A DNA stretch of 64,000 nucleotides from Escherichia coli (lineage in GTDB: Bacteria > Pseudomonadota > Gammaproteobacteria > Enterobacterales > Enterobacteriaceae). This document shows, piece by piece, positions 24,079-32,010 of the stretch. Both the position numbers and the translations under genes were made by a program. Positions within the stretch are counted from its first letter, which is position 1, and each line of letters starts with the position of its first letter. The stretch lies in the NCBI RefSeq assembly GCF_036507355.1, contig NZ_AP027877.1; one strand, 5' to 3'. Below the pieces are notes generated by a model. It was not told where the DNA came from and searched no databases. It saw only the letters and a list, made by a program, of their open reading frames with translations.

Positions 24079-24560
24079 TTACGAAAGCCCGCTCCCCGCA
24101 AGGACTGACGCCAGATAGTTTCTGTCCATGGCTGCTTTTCGCATCTTATGTCTTAACCCTGCCTTGAATACCTTATCATTCGTCAAAATATTAATAGCAA
24201 TGTGCCGTATCCCTGGAAATAATTCTGCTGCATTTCCTCTTCTTATTTTGCAGTCGTCTTCATTCATTACCACGTCCAGACGCCAGTGCAGCTTATTCTC
24301 CACGTGCCAGTGGTTTCGGATTGCTGTGGCGAACTTCTCTGCGGTTAAATCAGCAGAACTGATATAATATCTGACCGTCATTTCTGGCTCTTTCTTTTGT
24401 TCTGCTATTATGGACCGAAAGGAGACTGCCACGCATAATTTCTTCAGCCCTTTCCATTCAAACGTGAAATCAATAAGTTCATCAGGAACATCGCAAACAA
24501 TATGAAGACGGATTTCTTCTCTGCCGTGACTAAAATGCGAATTATTTAGTACAAAAAAAG
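24079..24560 (-). pseudogene. 3' remnant of an H-repeat / ISAs1-family transposase gene
   Basis: ORF 24079-24432 encodes ...[43 protein letters not shown]..., the conserved C-terminus of H-repeat proteins such as YdcC; further matching residues continue upstream in a shifted frame; N-terminal two-thirds absent. Confidence 0.6.
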
Positions 24561-24636: not shown

Positions 24637-25092
24637 TCAGGGGTGACATAAATAGAATTTTTTTTCATCCTCAATTGCCCATAACTGATTAATAAAAAAG
24701 TGTTTTTTATCATCTAATAACAAATCATCACATGTAGTAAAATTATTAATATCAAAAAAATCATCAGCACAATTAATTTTTAAATTTAAAAAATAAAGAA
24801 AAATATTATTGATTGATTTGAGTGTAAACCACTTGTCATTAACAAATTTATAGCCAGATGATTTTATAAAATAATAATTATCTCCTGGTATAAAGGCATA
24901 CATATCATTTAAGGTTATACTCAACAAAAAACTACGACCTGGTTTAATAGTATTCCAGCGTTCAGGATTCGTATTAATTTCAAAAGGACATGAACCACCT
25001 AAGTAGTCCAACGTGATATTCCCAGAGTTGATCCTGGATGGTTTTTTGCATATCGCATCATATTCATCTCCTTTTCCATCTTTTACTTTCAT
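24637..25092 (-). CDS. Hypothetical protein (151 aa), AT-rich, translationally coupled to the upstream small ORF
   Basis: Start ATG overlaps the stop of the upstream ORF (ATGA at 25089-25092); no recognisable motif. Confidence 0.4.
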   Translation of the reverse strand: MKVKDGKGDEYDAICKKPSRINSGNITLDYLGGSCPFEINTNPERWNTIKPGRSFLLSITLNDMYAFIPGDNYYFIKSSGYKFVNDKWFTLKSINNIFLYFLNLKINCADDFFDINNFTTCDDLLLDDKKHFFINQLWAIEDEKKFYLCHP

Positions 25093-25379
25093 AGGTAGAT
25101 AATATTTAGAAAAAAATACGTGGTAGAGCTATTGTTAGTAAAGGTTATGTTAGCAAAAATCCTGTTATTTTTTTTACTCATAGCTAATTGAGCATTGACA
25201 TCCGCTATATAATTTATATGATTACATTTTTTCTTACACTCATCATAATTTTCGATAGGATAAATTAATGGCCTTCCTTTGATATCTCTCTCAAGCCCAA
25301 ACCCGTATTTTTTTATTAAAACCATTTCATCCGCAGTCGATTGAAAGGAATAGAAAAATATAATATTTACGATTGTCAT
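25089..25379 (-). CDS. Hypothetical small protein (96 aa), AT-rich
   Basis: ORF only; hydrophobic N-terminus; coupled to the downstream ORF. Confidence 0.35.
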   Translation of the reverse strand: MTIVNIIFFYSFQSTADEMVLIKKYGFGLERDIKGRPLIYPIENYDECKKKCNHINYIADVNAQLAMSKKNNRIFANITFTNNSSTTYFFLNIIYL

Positions 25380-25431: not shown

Positions 25432-26280
25432 TTAATGGAGAAGTGTTTTTTCTAATTCCGCTATTTTTTTCTTAACTGAATTGCTTAATATTTCATCATT
25501 AATCGAGTCTATCTCACTTTCAATTAATCTTATTTCAAAATATCTTTCTATGTTATATGCATTCTCAAATATTTGATCTTTTTGTTTAGAGATCAGTTTA
25601 GTTGCAATACGGATATGTTCGTCATATGAAACTTCATCCTCTTTGCACGTTGAATATTTATCAGTAGTTGTATAATCCTGTGACCACATACCACCTTTTT
25701 TATTATCCCCATAATACCACTGAATATGAGACATTTCATGACATAAAGTAGCAACATGAGAATCCTTTCCCGTTACTGGATTTTTTTTGCCATCTCTATA
25801 CTCAAATTTTGCGCCTATGTTAATTATATAGGGCATATCCTTACTTGGGCTGACGAATGCTGCAAATTCATTACAACCTGTATAATTTATAAAACTGCTC
25901 ATTGTTAAATCATTAGCTATAATCATTAATCTTCTCACGCCATCCATCATAAGAAATCTAGCATTCATGCGCCTACCTGTATTATGTCCATATTTTCTTA
26001 TATTAACTTCCTTATTTCCTTTAACACCAAAGATCTTACTGAAATAATATTCCTCCTGTGCTCCCCATCTCAAAAGATCATCTGCTCTTTTTATCAAAAC
26101 CAACTTTTGTGCCTTACGAGCCTTATCAATCATTATTTTAAAATGATCAGTTATTTTTTGCTCTTTCACACATTCTTCTGGCTCTGGCTTTGGTTGTCCA
26201 GAAGTTTGATTATTATCGTCCATAGTGTCCTTCCATTGAGAGAAAATCATCATTCGCAAATAGCAACTAAAAAGCAGCAT
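25432..26280 (-). CDS. Hypothetical protein with HExxH motif (putative zincin-like metallopeptidase or toxin domain)
   Basis: Motif ATLCHEMSHIQWYYG; ~30% GC; true start may be the internal MDDNNQ (26223); function inferred from motif only. Confidence 0.45.
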   Translation of the reverse strand: MLLFSCYLRMMIFSQWKDTMDDNNQTSGQPKPEPEECVKEQKITDHFKIMIDKARKAQKLVLIKRADDLLRWGAQEEYYFSKIFGVKGNKEVNIRKYGHNTGRRMNARFLMMDGVRRLMIIANDLTMSSFINYTGCNEFAAFVSPSKDMPYIINIGAKFEYRDGKKNPVTGKDSHVATLCHEMSHIQWYYGDNKKGGMWSQDYTTTDKYSTCKEDEVSYDEHIRIATKLISKQKDQIFENAYNIERYFEIRLIESEIDSINDEILSNSVKKKIAELEKTLLH

Positions 26281-26410
26281 TACTTGACCTTTCCCTGCAT
26301 AACAATATTTATAAAATAATACGTTTTATGATCTCACCTTGGGCTCCCAACAAGATAATTTCAGTTTTAAAGACTTTCACGAAAAAAATATAGAAATACC
26401 TCACCACCCT

Positions 26411-26701
26411 TCACTTACCAATTAATCTCACAGGAAATCCAACTTCCTTACCACAAATACAATCCCAAGTAACACCTCCCAAAATTTTTGATACTTTAGG
26501 CTGCAATGGCATTATTGACATTATAAATTTATCAAGTTCTTCGCTATATTTAATTCCCTTTATATTTCTTATTATTGATATTCTAGCAGTAAAGATAGCC
26601 GTCTCTCCATCTACACTAAAAGTGTAATTACAATTTTTTGTAATCTCATCAAATTCAACCGATAACAAATCAATATTATGGTTTGTAAACACTATGCCCA
26701 T
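26411..26701 (-). CDS. Putative immunity protein for the upstream effector
   Basis: 96-aa ORF whose start overlaps the effector 3' end by 26 nt; call rests on position and size only. Confidence 0.4.
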   Translation of the reverse strand: MGIVFTNHNIDLLSVEFDEITKNCNYTFSVDGETAIFTARISIIRNIKGIKYSEELDKFIMSIMPLQPKVSKILGGVTWDCICGKEVGFPVRLIGK

Positions 26702-28115
26702 TCCATACCTCCTTAAATTCCTGTTCAGTCATCAGATATCGACTCCCTTGATATGGATCATATATTATCACATTCCCAGCATCATCAACACCCTTAACAA
26801 GTACCCAATGCCCTACTTTACTTCCAGAATCCCACATCATTGCTCCCCATGAACCAGTATTACTGAGGGCATATAAACTAGATTCGCTCACTGCATTCCC
26901 TTCCCAGCCGACATCAAATTTATTAAGCTTGTTTGCCAGCGACGTCATAGATGTTAATTCTGTTCCAATTACATTTTGCGTGACAAAAATATACCTATCC
27001 CTAAGCAACATTTCCCCACAGGCCGCTCCACAGCCTGTTAAAGTCAATTGCTTTATTACATTTGAATCTAAAACCTCATCAAATACTGTCCAATTGCCAC
27101 CAGCACCACCTTCTAAAACTACCGGCTCTACAAATACTTTCCCAGAGATATTTTCTTCTGGTATTTTTGCGGGTATCATAAAGCCCCATAAAAAGCTGGC
27201 AAAATGCTCCAGAGCAATCTGATCACCATTATTTGCATCCATTATCATTTTTTTAAGTGCATCCCATGCTTGCCCATTTATCAATGAATCACTAATATTA
27301 AATAAAGCCTGTTCTTTTTCGTTTAAATTTATATTTGCCTGTTCACATAACCCATCTTCGCCTATCGGGCAAGCAACCGTTGCCGTTGCCGTATCTAACA
27401 GAGCATCGAATGTAACTAAGGCTAAATCCGCCACACCATGTAAAGTGGTGATTGCTCCATTCCCCATTTGAGTAAGTGTGTTCTCTACAAACCATTCTCT
27501 AATTTGAGATTTATCTCCTTCAATATCATTCCTGAGAGATTCTCTGATATTCTTTATTGAAAAAAACTCCCCCCATGATTGGTCAGGATCTTTTATTTGG
27601 AATAAATCATTTTTAACCTCAGGTGAAATATCTCCGTCAAAAATATTACCAACAGAGAGGAGATCCTTCAGAAGCAGTAAATCGTGTATTACTTCAGCAG
27701 TCCTTTCATAATTAAAAGTTCTATCAATGACAGAAATCATTGGTGATTTTATTTTGGTATATAATTTACCAAGGCAGTTATGGTTATTAATCCCAACAAC
27801 TGAACCATGATAAGCGACAGGTCTCCCCTCTATTGTTACAGTCGGACTTCCCGTTAAAATAACGCAGTCACCTGTTCCTTGAGATGTACCAGATATGACA
27901 CCTTTACCGGCATTACTTTGAGTTCCAGCAATCACTGAACCAACATTTAAAGCTCTGCATCCACGCGCCCATACCGTTGAACTGTACTGCCTTTCACTAT
28001 CTAAAGTCTGGTAACTGTCAAAAGGAACCTTGTCACCTCCTACTTCACATACATCTGGTGAAGAGCACACGACTTTAAATCTACATTCACCATCCCCGAT
28101 ATGATAGCTACCCAT
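26676..28115 (-). CDS. Putative T6SS effector: N-terminal DUF4150-type PAAR-like domain, C-terminal C39-like papain-fold Cys peptidase domain
   Basis: N-term SPDVC...VPFDSY...GKGVISGTSQG...TVTIEGRPVAYHGSVVGINNHN resembles the DUF4150 pattern; C-term GCGAACGEML and GHWVLVKGVDD...IIYDP resemble Cys and His motifs of C39/papain-like peptidases; downstream of vgrG. Confidence 0.6.
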   Translation of the reverse strand: MGSYHIGDGECRFKVVCSSPDVCEVGGDKVPFDSYQTLDSERQYSSTVWARGCRALNVGSVIAGTQSNAGKGVISGTSQGTGDCVILTGSPTVTIEGRPVAYHGSVVGINNHNCLGKLYTKIKSPMISVIDRTFNYERTAEVIHDLLLLKDLLSVGNIFDGDISPEVKNDLFQIKDPDQSWGEFFSIKNIRESLRNDIEGDKSQIREWFVENTLTQMGNGAITTLHGVADLALVTFDALLDTATATVACPIGEDGLCEQANINLNEKEQALFNISDSLINGQAWDALKKMIMDANNGDQIALEHFASFLWGFMIPAKIPEENISGKVFVEPVVLEGGAGGNWTVFDEVLDSNVIKQLTLTGCGAACGEMLLRDRYIFVTQNVIGTELTSMTSLANKLNKFDVGWEGNAVSESSLYALSNTGSWGAMMWDSGSKVGHWVLVKGVDDAGNVIIYDPYQGSRYLMTEQEFKEVWNGHSVYKP

Positions 28116-28698
28116 AATATTTTTTTCCTATACATTCAGGAATAATACAACTCAGCACTCCTTCTTTCATTCCAAAAAAATCAGGTATTGTCAATCTCCA
28201 GGTAAGGTATATTTCCTGTCGATTTAAATCGATAACCATTGTATCCGCAACAGGTAAGAACATATGAGATGTATTATGCTTGGTTTTTAATATAAGTACA
28301 GGTCGTATACCTGGCAATTTTGTCTTAACAACCTGTTCAAATTTAAAAAAACCTTCAAGAGTGATGTTTTCATCGCCAGAGAGAAACCCCGCGTATATCA
28401 TATCCGGATGAGCACTATTGTAGAACCTCTCATCAAAATCATCCGGCAAATAGGGATAGCGCTTTTCACGCCATACTTCATTGTAGGTTCCTGCATACTG
28501 GAGGCGACTTTTCCACCATCGAGATACAGGGCCAACGCCTTGAAAAAAGTCAGATTCCCCATTAAAAATGGTAGCGTTTTCTGACAAAGCAGAGCTGGTT
28601 ATTTGTGGGAGTTTATATTGACAACTTGTATTAAGTTGGGAAATATCAGGATAATATCCACAACCTACAGGGTTTGCTGAAAAAACCAATTTTCCCAT
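28108..28698 (-). CDS. Hypothetical protein in adaptor/chaperone position between vgrG and the effector
   Basis: 196-aa ORF; stop overlaps effector start by 8 nt; adaptor role (DUF2169-type by analogy) inferred from gene order only. Confidence 0.35.
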   Translation of the reverse strand: MGKLVFSANPVGCGYYPDISQLNTSCQYKLPQITSSALSENATIFNGESDFFQGVGPVSRWWKSRLQYAGTYNEVWREKRYPYLPDDFDERFYNSAHPDMIYAGFLSGDENITLEGFFKFEQVVKTKLPGIRPVLILKTKHNTSHMFLPVADTMVIDLNRQEIYLTWRLTIPDFFGMKEGVLSCIIPECIGKKYYG

Positions 28699-29560
28699 AC
28701 CATCTGGTTGCCAAATACCACCGTAAGCAAGCTCATAGCGTAGAGGAATATTAATAATTTTATCGTGAGATGCTGATCGTTCGCTACCACAATCTTCTGA
28801 TCATGACTGCCTTCCTTCTTACTCCCAACATTCACCGTCTGACCCACACCCACCGTAATTTTCTGGTTATTGGTTATGGTTTCCGTGTGGTCGTGTTTCA
28901 CCGTCGTCGTCCGGTCATTCAGCACCTCCGTATCCATGTTCTTCTGCGCATGGATATACACCTGCTCATTACTGGTGGCGTCTTCAAACCGCAGCTCGTT
29001 AAATCCGCTTCCTTTATAGGTTTTTGACCGGATGGTCATCTGCGTCTTCGTTCCCGGCAGGTCGCCCGGCGAACGGTTGTCCTCATGGTAGGTCCGCCCC
29101 ATGATTATCGGCTGGTCCGGGTCGCCGTTCAGAAAATCAACAATCACCTCCTGGCCCACCCGCGGTATCGCCAGGTTACCGAACCCCGGCCCCGCCCACG
29201 CCTGCGATACCCGCACCCAGCATGAACTCGCCTCCGTCATCCCGTGATAACGGTCCCAGTGGAACTTCACCCGTACCCGGCCATGTTCATCGCAGAAGAT
29301 TTCCTCTCCCGCAGGCCCGGTGACAATGGCACTCTGCGGCCCGTCCACCTTCGGTTTGCTTTGCAGCCGTGGACGCCACGTCCGGTCCGCCGGTATCACC
29401 TCTAACTGATTTCCCAGCGTGGTTCCTCTCCCTTGGCTGCCGTGCAGCGCCTGCGGCTGGTTTCCTGACAGAATGCTCTGTACCACCTGCCATTCACGGT
29501 TCAGCATCTTCTGCGGATGAGGTGTACTGGCAATAGCGGACACTACCATTTGTTCTTTTT

Positions 29561-30379
29561 TTAAGCAGCCATCTGATGATATTTTTCCCTGAAGGCTGCC
29601 GGGGAGATATTCCCCAGACGAGAGTGACGACGCTGACGATTGTAGAAAATCTCAATGTATTCCCGTATTACTGAGATGGCTTCATCCCGGTTATTAAAAC
29701 GATAGTGGCTCAGGCTCTCATTTTTCAGCGTTCCCCAGAAGCTTTCCATCGGAGCGTTGTCGTAACAGTTACCTTTACGCGACATTGATGTTTTCAGACC
29801 AAACTGCTCCTGTATGACCCGGTAATCGTATGCGCAGTACTGTGAACCTCGATCAGAGTGGTGGATTAGCCCGGCAGGTGGGCGCTGTCTCCTGAGCGCC
29901 ATAAACAGGGCTTTACCTGTCAGCTCTTTTGTCATGCGCTCTCCCATGGCGTAGCCGACAATTTCGCACGTATAAACATCTTTGATGCCAGCGAGGTACA
30001 ACCATCCCTCCTGTGTGGCAACATACGTCAGGTCCGCCACCCAGACCTGATTTGGTGCTGTAGGAGCGAACGTCTGGTTCAGCAGATTTGGCGCAACTGG
30101 CAGATTGTGGTTCGAGTTCGTAGTCGCTCTGAACTTGCGTTTCTGCTTACAGCGTAGCCTTAGCTCCTTACGAAGACGTGCCAGTCGGTCACGACCAACG
30201 ATGATGCCATTCTCTGCCAGCTCCGTCTGGAGCCGCCGGGTTCCATATGTTTCGCGAGTGCGGATATGTGCCACCTTAATCTCCAGTTTTAGCCGCTCAT
30301 CACTTTGTTTTCTGTCTGAGGGTTCATGCTGTACCCAGTTGTAATAACCGCTCCTGGATACACCAAATACCTGACACAT
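29561..30379 (-). CDS. IS600-like transposase OrfB (DDE integrase core)
   Basis: 272-aa ORF with IS3-family OrfB sequence; normally expressed as an OrfAB fusion by -1 frameshifting. Confidence 0.8.
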   Translation of the reverse strand: MCQVFGVSRSGYYNWVQHEPSDRKQSDERLKLEIKVAHIRTRETYGTRRLQTELAENGIIVGRDRLARLRKELRLRCKQKRKFRATTNSNHNLPVAPNLLNQTFAPTAPNQVWVADLTYVATQEGWLYLAGIKDVYTCEIVGYAMGERMTKELTGKALFMALRRQRPPAGLIHHSDRGSQYCAYDYRVIQEQFGLKTSMSRKGNCYDNAPMESFWGTLKNESLSHYRFNNRDEAISVIREYIEIFYNRQRRHSRLGNISPAAFREKYHQMAA

Positions 30380-30414
30380 CGCTTCAATGGGAAATTGTTG
30401 TCGCCATTGTTCGA

Positions 30415-30717
30415 TTAACGCGTATTTTTCAGCGACTCCTGTGCAAAATACGCTGTTGCTTTTTTTAATATATCTCGCTCAAGGCGAGCTTCATTTAACG
30501 CCTTACGCAGTTGCAGAATTTCAGATTCCAGTTCAGCCACCGTGCGGGAACCAGGAGTACCGAGCCCTTTTCTGGCGGCGGTAACCCATTGTCCTAAAGT
30601 GCCTTCAGGAAGAGATAATCGGGAAGCGCCTTCACTGATCGAAAGTTGATTTTCAAGAACCGTTCTGACAGCTTCGGCTTTGAACTCTTTAGAGTAACGT
30701 TGGGTTTTTCTGCTCAT
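30415..30717 (-). CDS. IS600-like transposase OrfA (HTH)
   Basis: 100-aa ORF MSRKTQRYSKEFKAEAVR... typical of IS3-family OrfA. Confidence 0.8.
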   Translation of the reverse strand: MSRKTQRYSKEFKAEAVRTVLENQLSISEGASRLSLPEGTLGQWVTAARKGLGTPGSRTVAELESEILQLRKALNEARLERDILKKATAYFAQESLKNTR

Positions 30718-31725
30718 TATTAGCTCCTTCTGATGCCATTCTATTTCAGGAAGGAGTGTCCGTTAAACTCAGGCTACCTCAGGATGCCCCGTCAGCGTAA
30801 ACCGCGTTCCCGGCCACAGCCTCGGCGAATTACTCTGCCCTGTGGCCTTTTCCGCATCACTGCGCAGGCTCTCCATCTGGTACAGCGTGAAATCCTTGCC
30901 GTGCTGCTCATCCTTGAACCTTCCCGGATAATCAAATATTTCATACTGCGCCAGCTGTCCGTTCAGGTTCTCACCCTGCTGCTCATACATCCCCGGCCAG
31001 TCCGGCACCTTAAACGTGTAATCCTGGCTCTGCACCGACGACGGGCGGACATGCGCCTCATAACGGAACATACTGAGACACTCCGTCTCCGCTCCTGCCG
31101 ATGTGTCCGGGTTAAACGGAAGCTCTCCCGCCTGTGACAGCCCCGCCACATCGTCGCACAGCGTCAGCTTCTGCTCCGGACTGTCCGCCGCAAACCGCTC
31201 AAAGAAGAAAATTCCCTCCTCCGCCCACAGCCGGGACAGAAACGCCAGGTCGCTTTCCCCGTACTGGACACAGAACTCCCGCGCCGGATGGTCCTCATAA
31301 AACAGCGGCGTCCACTCCGTGACGCCGTTCTCGTTCAGTAACGTGGCCGATATCGTCCGGATATCCTGCTGCTGGAAGATACGGAAGTTCTGCCGCAGCC
31401 CGCACCGCCATAACGGCGGCTCAATACGCAGGTGATAACGCATCTGCCAGCCGTTATTCTCCTGCATACCAAAACCCGCCACCACGCCGGTGACATAACG
31501 CTGCGCCACTGCGCCCTGCCAGATGGTCAGCGTCGCCTTCTTCTCCAGCAGCATCTCCGCCGTCTGCATAAAAGAGTCGCTGGCAACATCCACACTCATC
31601 ACAAACGGATATGACTGGCTCTGGATTAACCGGAAGCTCACCACTGCAAAGGTGTCCGGCTCCTGGCCGTCAACCTCCAGCGTAAAGCGAAGACCTTTTA
31701 ATGACATAAATACCTCTCAGACATA

Positions 31726-32010
31726 TCAGCCTATATTTACCGTGCCGCCACCGATAACCACGCCGCCGCAGTCAACAGCATCACCGCTTCTGGCGGCGGG
31801 CAGACCGTCAATAAAGACGGTTGAAGAACCTCTGGCGATTTTTCGGGGATGAGGGGGATGCTTCGGTTTAGCATGCGGCGTCAGCGGATCTCCCTGACGG
31901 GCTGCGGGAAGACCATCGATAAAGACGGTGGATGACCCGGCGGTGATGACGGTCTCGTAATAACCGTCGTGCTGGGTGCCTTTGTCGGTGAGTTTGGCTG
32001 CTAAAGGCAT
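31726..32010 (-). CDS. PAAR-repeat protein (T6SS spike tip)
   Basis: 94-aa ORF containing GLPAARQGD and GLPAARSGD; immediately upstream of vgrG on the same strand. Confidence 0.8.
   Translation of the reverse strand: MPLAAKLTDKGTQHDGYYETVITAGSSTVFIDGLPAARQGDPLTPHAKPKHPPHPRKIARGSSTVFIDGLPAARSGDAVDCGGVVIGGGTVNIG

Follow-up and report, generated by a model that had tools for sequence, protein, structure and literature searches.

The stretch of DNA considered here (the window, 64,000 nucleotides of contig NZ_AP027877.1 in assembly GCF_036507355.1) is Escherichia coli chromosome that runs from fdnG/narZ through ydcR/opgD and holds an island between pptA and yncG. Our subject is one gene of that island, an open reading frame (ORF) identified below as cpe1, also called tsaP, which encodes a type VI secretion system (T6SS) cysteine-protease effector. 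It is followed by its immunity gene, cpi1, and preceded by the remnants of a vgrG gene, interrupted by an insertion sequence (IS), and of a gene for a DUF2169 chaperone (Table 1). An earlier note, made from the sequence alone, had proposed a modular toxin at positions 26676-28115, and an ATG-to-stop ORF of 479 amino acids (aa) fills this interval exactly on the minus strand; translation of the plus strand over the same interval meets many stops. All of the motifs quoted in the note occur in the minus-strand translation: SPDVC (aa 19-23), VPFDSY (30-35), GKGVISGTSQG (70-80), TVTIEGRPVAYHGSVVGINNHN (92-113), GCGAACGEML (361-370) and GHWVLVKGVDD...IIYDP (435-454). These motif matches, like the domain matches described below, are far above chance. 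Absent from the note were the minus strand, the middle domain of the protein (aa 189-335) and the damage to the vgrG and DUF2169 genes upstream.

The ORF is identified as cpe1 because several comparisons agree. First, the protein is identical at 471 of 479 positions to Cpe1 of strain S88 (WP_000528852.1), for which the RefSeq gene names are “cpe1: cysteine protease effector protein Cpe1” and “cpi1: cysteine protease immunity protein Cpi1”; the eight substitutions (positions 3, 14, 28, 98, 197, 210, 276 and 294) all lie outside the toxin domain. Second, a search of PDB sequences found chain A of 9l5u to be 100% identical over aa 337-479 (E=2.5e-94), and chain C of the same entry (“Cpi1”) is matched by the window Cpi1 over its full length, also at 100% identity, so that the downstream ORF mentioned in the note is an immunity gene. 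Third, Pfam places a PAAR-like family at the N-terminus and Peptidase_C39 (PF03412, E=1.2e-5) at aa 352-474, and this layout is that published for TsaP. We therefore hold with high confidence, jointly with the mechanism and the stranded-locus reading developed below, that the ORF is cpe1 (tsaP), a known three-part T6SS effector of E. coli, with cpi1 after it. The protein is not new: the structure, the target, the immunity mechanism and the entry domain of the type used in contact-dependent growth inhibition (CDI) have all been published already, and the gene is named in RefSeq. The earlier note had known of no characterised effector with this combination and had held the choice among amidase, protease and deamidase to be undeterminable from sequence; both statements are overtaken by the literature, in which the protein was described as TsaP in 2023 (PMC10434152) and as Cpe1 in 2025 (PMC12136450), with crystal structures deposited and with GyrB and ParE as the published targets of a protease. 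In a scan of NCBIfam neither Cpe1 nor Cpi1 was assigned to a family, and the same holds for the DUF2169 remnant and for the three ORFs downstream. By megablast, the region of cpe1 and its neighbours was found at 95% identity or higher in 335 of the 5,426 complete genomes of E. coli searched, on the chromosome in every case.

At the N-terminus, the match to PF13665 (positions 2-107 of the 108 in the model) bears out the DUF4150 PAAR-like domain that the note had proposed. Proteins of this kind carry a “PIPY” motif, P(I/V)P(Y/F), as defined by Sachar et al. (2025, PMC11883445). The corresponding residues of Cpe1 are K29-V30-P31-F32 (KVPF), which fit the motif at three of four positions, with Lys for the first Pro, and which are identical in S88 Cpe1. 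About 70 residues between the PAAR-like and entry-like domains (aa 116-188, positions 27552-27770) matched no Pfam family or PDB chain; they might serve as a linker or make contact with the chaperone or with VgrG. From aa 189 to 477 the protein aligns to 8ssk (E=1.7e-81), whose deposited name is “Fimbrial usher protein StbD” (that is, StbD-CT of Citrobacter rodentium); 12aj and 8ssm, which hold the C39 domain of StbD-CT, are the other strong PDB matches. Identity to StbD-CT is 38% (55/146) over the entry-like region, aa 189-335, where the disulfide Cys pair is conserved as C249/C257, and 58% (81/140) over the C39 domain, aa 338-477. In the alignment to 8ssk, C362 corresponds to the mutated Ala183 of the construct, C366 to C187, H436 to H258 and D453 to D275. 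The active-site residues proposed in the note can thus be named: the first Cys in GCGAACGEML is C362, published as the catalytic residue, while GHWV and IYDP supply the His and the Asp, H436 and D453, aligned with H258 and D275 of StbD-CT, which are proven by mutation. The structural check that the note asked for, on a papain-like Cys-His arrangement, is answered by experimental structures, namely 9l5u (identical toxin domain) and 8ssk (an entry-plus-peptidase protein that is 38-58% identical).

Table 1. Features of the cpe1 island, with positions in the window (strand “.”, not stranded).
Feature	Position	Strand	Evidence
cpi1, 96-aa immunity protein, 26-nt overlap with the cpe1 stop region	26411..26701	-	96/96 identical to S88 Cpi1
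cpe1 (= tsaP), intact 479-aa T6SS cysteine-protease effector	26676..28115	-	ORF; 471/479 vs S88 WP_000528852.1; Pfam; PDB
C39 papain-like cysteine peptidase toxin domain, aa 338-479, triad C362/H436/D453 and second Cys C366	26679..27104	-	9l5u_A; PF03412
Di-glycine site G336-G337|A338	27102..27110	-	GGAGGNW identical to StbD-CT, equivalent of auto-processing site G157-G158|A159
Middle helical domain, aa 189-335	27111..27551	-	phmmer alignment to PDB 8ssk (query 189-477); StbD-CT entry-domain homologue
PAAR-like/DUF4150 (“PIPY”) spike-tip domain, aa 15-115	27771..28073	-	Pfam PF13665 Tox-PAAR-like, E=1.9e-11
Truncated DUF2169 chaperone gene, residues 131-348 of 348 left, longest ORF 196 aa	28108..28764	-	tblastn; PF09937 match of that 196-aa product in further contigs
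796-bp deletion junction between 7-bp direct repeats TTTTATC	28758..28764	.	blastn vs PapRG-04-4
vgrG fragment, about residues 306-561 of 660	28765..29517	-	TIGR03361 positions 298-513; tblastn
IS3-family insertion sequence, 1,264 bp	29518..30781	-	ORFs; boundaries vs PapRG-04-4
vgrG N-terminal fragment, about residues 1-310	30782..31707	-	TIGR03361 positions 1-302; tblastn
Canonical 94-aa T6SS PAAR gene, island head	31726..32010	-	NF033420, E=1.4e-46, above curated cut-off

Lu et al. described TsaP (gene 1835) of the extraintestinal pathogenic E. coli strain RS218 as a T6SS effector made of a PAAR part (nt 1-324), a middle part (nt 324-1041) and a C39 part (nt 1041-1437), and found that toxicity on expression was confined to the C-terminal part (Microbiol Spectr 2023, PMC10434152). 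Song et al. then showed that C362 of Cpe1 is catalytic, with C362A abolishing toxicity (PLoS Biol 2025, PMC12136450). The toxin domain was toxic in the cytoplasm and gave filamentation and segregation defects, not lysis. Its substrates were GyrB and ParE, which were crosslinked to the toxin domain and cleaved in vitro, and the cut falls after the Gly-Gly of LHAGGKF in the ATPase domain (GyrB G101-G102, ParE G97-G98); DNA supercoil relaxation is lost and chromosome segregation fails. Cpi1 neutralises the toxin by occupying a hydrophobic substrate-binding exosite, not the active site (PMC12136450). T6SS dependence has been shown under both names (PMC12136450; PMC10434152). Further help comes from StbD-CT, a CDI toxin of C. 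rodentium in which an N-terminal domain for YajC-dependent entry into the cytoplasm is joined by a flexible linker to a C39 peptidase: the peptidase releases itself after Gly157-Gly158 under reducing conditions, a step needed for intoxication, and activity depends on each of C183, H258 and D275, by mutagenesis (bioRxiv 10.64898/2026.05.07.723447). The same preprint points out that Cpe1 has a homologous entry domain and the same auto-processing site, and proposes both steps for Cpe1. As for delivery, genetic and biochemical evidence from Pseudomonas aeruginosa and Vibrio parahaemolyticus indicates that PIPY effectors need VgrG and DUF2169, the latter being required for formation of the PIPY-VgrG spike; DUF2169 and DUF4150 stand at 1:1 in most genomes, and delivery is VgrG-specific (PMC11883445).

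A mechanism can be proposed along these lines. Judging from other PIPY effectors, the N-terminal DUF4150 cone would cap its cognate VgrG spike with the help of the DUF2169 chaperone. After injection, the middle helical domain, by analogy with StbD-CT probably a YajC-dependent entry domain, would reach the cytoplasm through YajC of the inner membrane. There the C39 peptidase would probably free itself under reducing conditions; cleavage is predicted after G336-G337, from the linker GGAGGNW that Cpe1 and StbD-CT have in common. The released peptidase, with its triad C362/H436/D453, is then expected to cut within LHAGGKF of GyrB and ParE, at its Gly-Gly, and so to block supercoil relaxation and chromosome segregation, an activity that has been shown for the identical toxin domain and that we infer for the window allele from that identity. 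The producer would meanwhile be guarded by Cpi1 bound to the substrate-binding exosite, as has been shown for the identical Cpi1.

Comparison with named systems places the window copy among close and more distant relatives. The closest is Cpe1 of ATCC 11775 (the same protein as that of S88), which also has 479 aa and is 98% identical overall, with toxin domain and Cpi1 at 100% and the same gene order, DUF2169-cpe1-cpi1. The window copy differs by the eight substitutions, which lie in its PAAR-like and middle regions, and by its site, the pptA-yncG island, whereas cpe1 of S88 and ATCC 11775 lies in the main T6SS cluster beside yafV; moreover, the upstream vgrG and DUF2169 genes are disrupted in the window, unlike at the ATCC 11775/S88 locus. 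TsaP of RS218, likened here by its published layout, has the same three parts with the same boundaries and a C-terminal part that is toxic alone, although that paper used TsaP mainly as a source of engineered antimicrobial peptides. StbD-CT (8ssk, 8ssm, 12aj) is homologous in both its entry and C39 domains and agrees in GGAGGNW, the triad, the second Cys, the entry Cys pair and the GyrB/ParE target, but it is delivered by a CdiA filament (two-partner secretion) after VENN cleavage, whereas Cpe1 is delivered by its PAAR-like domain on the T6SS spike. The immunity proteins of the two are distantly related only (Cpi1 against the CdiI of 8ssm, E=6e-9). Finally, the PIPY/DUF4150 effectors that go with DUF2169, such as Tse7 of P. 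aeruginosa, VP1415 of V. parahaemolyticus and Tde2 of Agrobacterium (PMC11883445), have an N-terminal DUF4150 and the “type B” synteny vgrG-DUF2169-effector. They differ from Cpe1 in that their toxin domains are nucleases and not a protease, and in having P(I/V)P(Y/F) where Cpe1 has KVPF. The window island also has a canonical PAAR gene at its head, as do the islands of strain PapRG-04-4 and of O145:H28; such a gene is rare near DUF2169 according to Sachar et al. (PMC11883445).

The genes that would deliver Cpe1 have decayed at this locus. The lesions were read against the intact island of PapRG-04-4 (by blastn, junction sequences and tblastn residue ranges), whose order on the minus strand is PAAR, vgrG, DUF2169, PAAR-like effector, immunity gene, “peptidase M35”, a hypothetical gene and an ISAs1 remnant. 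Linkage of the PAAR-like gene to DUF2169 and vgrG is therefore intact at the PapRG-04-4 locus, and in the window both remnants lie directly upstream of cpe1. One lesion is the 796-bp deletion, which has taken 99 codons from the end of vgrG (residues 562-660), 130 codons from the start of DUF2169 and the spacer between the two genes, and across which the vgrG frame continues out of frame into the DUF2169 remnant. The other is the IS3-family element, present as a single copy in the window. It encodes its transposase in two ORFs that overlap (100 aa and 272 aa), ends in TGAGGT terminal inverted repeats, comes with a target duplication of 3 bp (GGA) and splits vgrG after about residue 310. The cpe1 locus is thus left with no intact cognate vgrG or DUF2169, a fact that bears on the use of this copy and not on the identity of the protein. 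Genes for Hcp or TssB/C/E were found nowhere in the 64-kb window. A promoter and terminator scan of positions 26300-29600 gave 15 promoter-like sites against the 8.3±3.0 expected in AT-rich DNA, none of them compelling.

The deletion is not confined to this assembly: the TTTTATC junction is present in all eight of the other contigs that encode an identical Cpe1, and the arrangement is therefore common to a lineage; the vgrG/IS junction is present in one of them. Assembly GCA_905398585.1 shares the deletion junction. No genome among the 5,426 complete ones of E. coli has the exact arrangement of the window; the closest are PapRG-04-4 (intact) and O145:H28 (a different deletion). The core genes that flank the island (1-24000 and 39001-64000) reach a best identity in that set of 98.4% on the left and 99.0% on the right, which means that the set has no close representative of the source lineage. 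In O145:H28 (strain 16003; L003 5341-7566 against window 27178-28966), this site has undergone an independent deletion, of 1.8 kb, which has left a 111-aa “C39 domain-containing protein” fragment next to a cpi1 that is 100% identical to that of the window and that looks like an orphan immunity gene kept after loss of the toxin. The island of strain 16003 also has a different IS3-family element at another position. The cargo of the island has 29-39% G+C, against 53-58% for vgrG, and this is how exchangeable toxin modules usually show themselves. Substitutions in the window allele relative to S88 and PapRG-04-4 are concentrated in codons 3-118; the pattern is too sparse to demonstrate relaxed selection and could equally be a recombination tract.

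How, then, is this copy used? PIPY effectors need both VgrG and DUF2169, and because both genes are broken here, Cpe1 most likely could not be loaded from its own locus. We consider it fairly probable that the toxin-immunity pair, though intact, is stranded, and that its main value is probably the immunity that Cpi1 gives. Several points weigh against this account and the mechanism joined to it. A compatible second vgrG-DUF2169 pair could lie elsewhere in the genome, say in a main T6SS cluster like that of S88, and the claim that the copy is stranded rests on 64 kb. Use of YajC and auto-processing are steps proposed for Cpe1 by analogy with StbD-CT. The presumed activity of the window allele follows from its identity to the published protein, from the S88 version of which it differs by eight substitutions, none in the toxin domain. 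In addition, cleavage-resistant GyrB and ParE gave cells no protection, and the authors of that work allowed that further substrates may exist (PMC12136450).

The first of these points, taken further, gives the rival that survives best, in which the copy is an active weapon: Cpe1 would be loaded on another VgrG with which it is compatible, helped by an intact DUF2169, both from genes elsewhere in the genome, and the local decay would have no functional effect. In keeping with this, cpe1 and cpi1 are both intact, an identical Cpe1 is encoded in 14 contigs, and the main-cluster vgrG beside cpe1 in S88 and ATCC 11775 is 94% identical in its N-terminal part to the window vgrG, so that compatible paralogues exist in the species. 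But the 1:1 ratio and the VgrG-specific delivery reported for DUF2169 and DUF4150 (PMC11883445) speak otherwise, a main-cluster vgrG-DUF2169 pair, if present, would probably carry a PIPY effector of its own, O145:H28 displays further decay at this locus, and the window has no T6SS core genes; on balance we regard an active weapon as unlikely. Less likely still, and in our view a distinctly long shot, is that an intact cpe1 is kept through loading on a non-cognate spike, through chaperoning by the 196-218-aa DUF2169 remnant, or as a chromosomal addiction module; were any of these true, the strict cognate rule that ties VgrG, DUF2169 and PIPY effector together would be relaxed. The value of the locus is modest, as a natural example of the decay of a T6SS effector island in which the spike and chaperone genes are lost first and the toxin-immunity pair persists. 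Both the window pair and the cpi1 of O145:H28 with its 3′ cpe1 fragment fit selection to stay protected from neighbours in which Cpe1 is still fired.

Among T6SS effectors with a papain fold, those of the Tae/NlpC-P60 type are peptidoglycan amidases, and it could be supposed from them that the C-terminal domain is a periplasmic cell-wall amidase or deamidase. This idea has next to no chance of being right: the Pfam match is to C39 and not to NlpC/P60 or CHAP, and the role is refuted by published biochemistry on an identical domain, since the crystallised Cpe1tox is toxic in the cytoplasm, is crosslinked to GyrB and ParE, cleaves them in vitro and causes filamentation without lysis (PMC12136450). 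Equally hard to credit is a housekeeping bacteriocin-leader peptidase, a role suggested by the peptidase domains of ComA and LahT, the closest structural relatives of the toxin domain, and by the Peptidase_C39 match itself, but refuted by published toxicity and T6SS-dependent killing and by an architecture in which the C39 fold and chemistry sit in a toxin context (with a PAAR-like domain in the same protein, within a vgrG island and beside an immunity gene), unlike the classical context of the family, the N-terminal domain of an ABC-transporter bacteriocin exporter; the ORF list and Pfam reveal no ABC-transporter transmembrane or ATPase domain within or beside the ORF.

Directly downstream of cpi1 lies a 282-aa ORF (25432-26280, minus strand) with an HExxH motif (HEMSH). 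Its Pfam matches are weak (Aspzincin_M35, E=0.0054; Peptidase_M91, E=0.03), and scans of NCBIfam and of PDB sequences returned no match. The possibility that it is an orphan module of Cpe1 was discarded, as it has no sequence similarity to Cpe1. Its orthologue is named “peptidase M35” by the annotation pipeline PGAP, and the gene is frameshifted in PapRG-04-4, split in O145:H28 and intact in the window. After it come two small ORFs (25089-25379 and 24637-25092, both minus strand) with a mutual overlap of 4 nt; the DNA here has 29-31% G+C. The HExxH ORF may encode a cargo effector, an uncharacterised metallopeptidase, and the small ORFs its immunity proteins. On the pptA side the island is bounded by a remnant of an ISAs1-family (H-repeat) transposase gene (24079-24432, minus strand); PapRG-04-4, O145:H28 and S88 have it too, with the annotation of a partial pseudogene.

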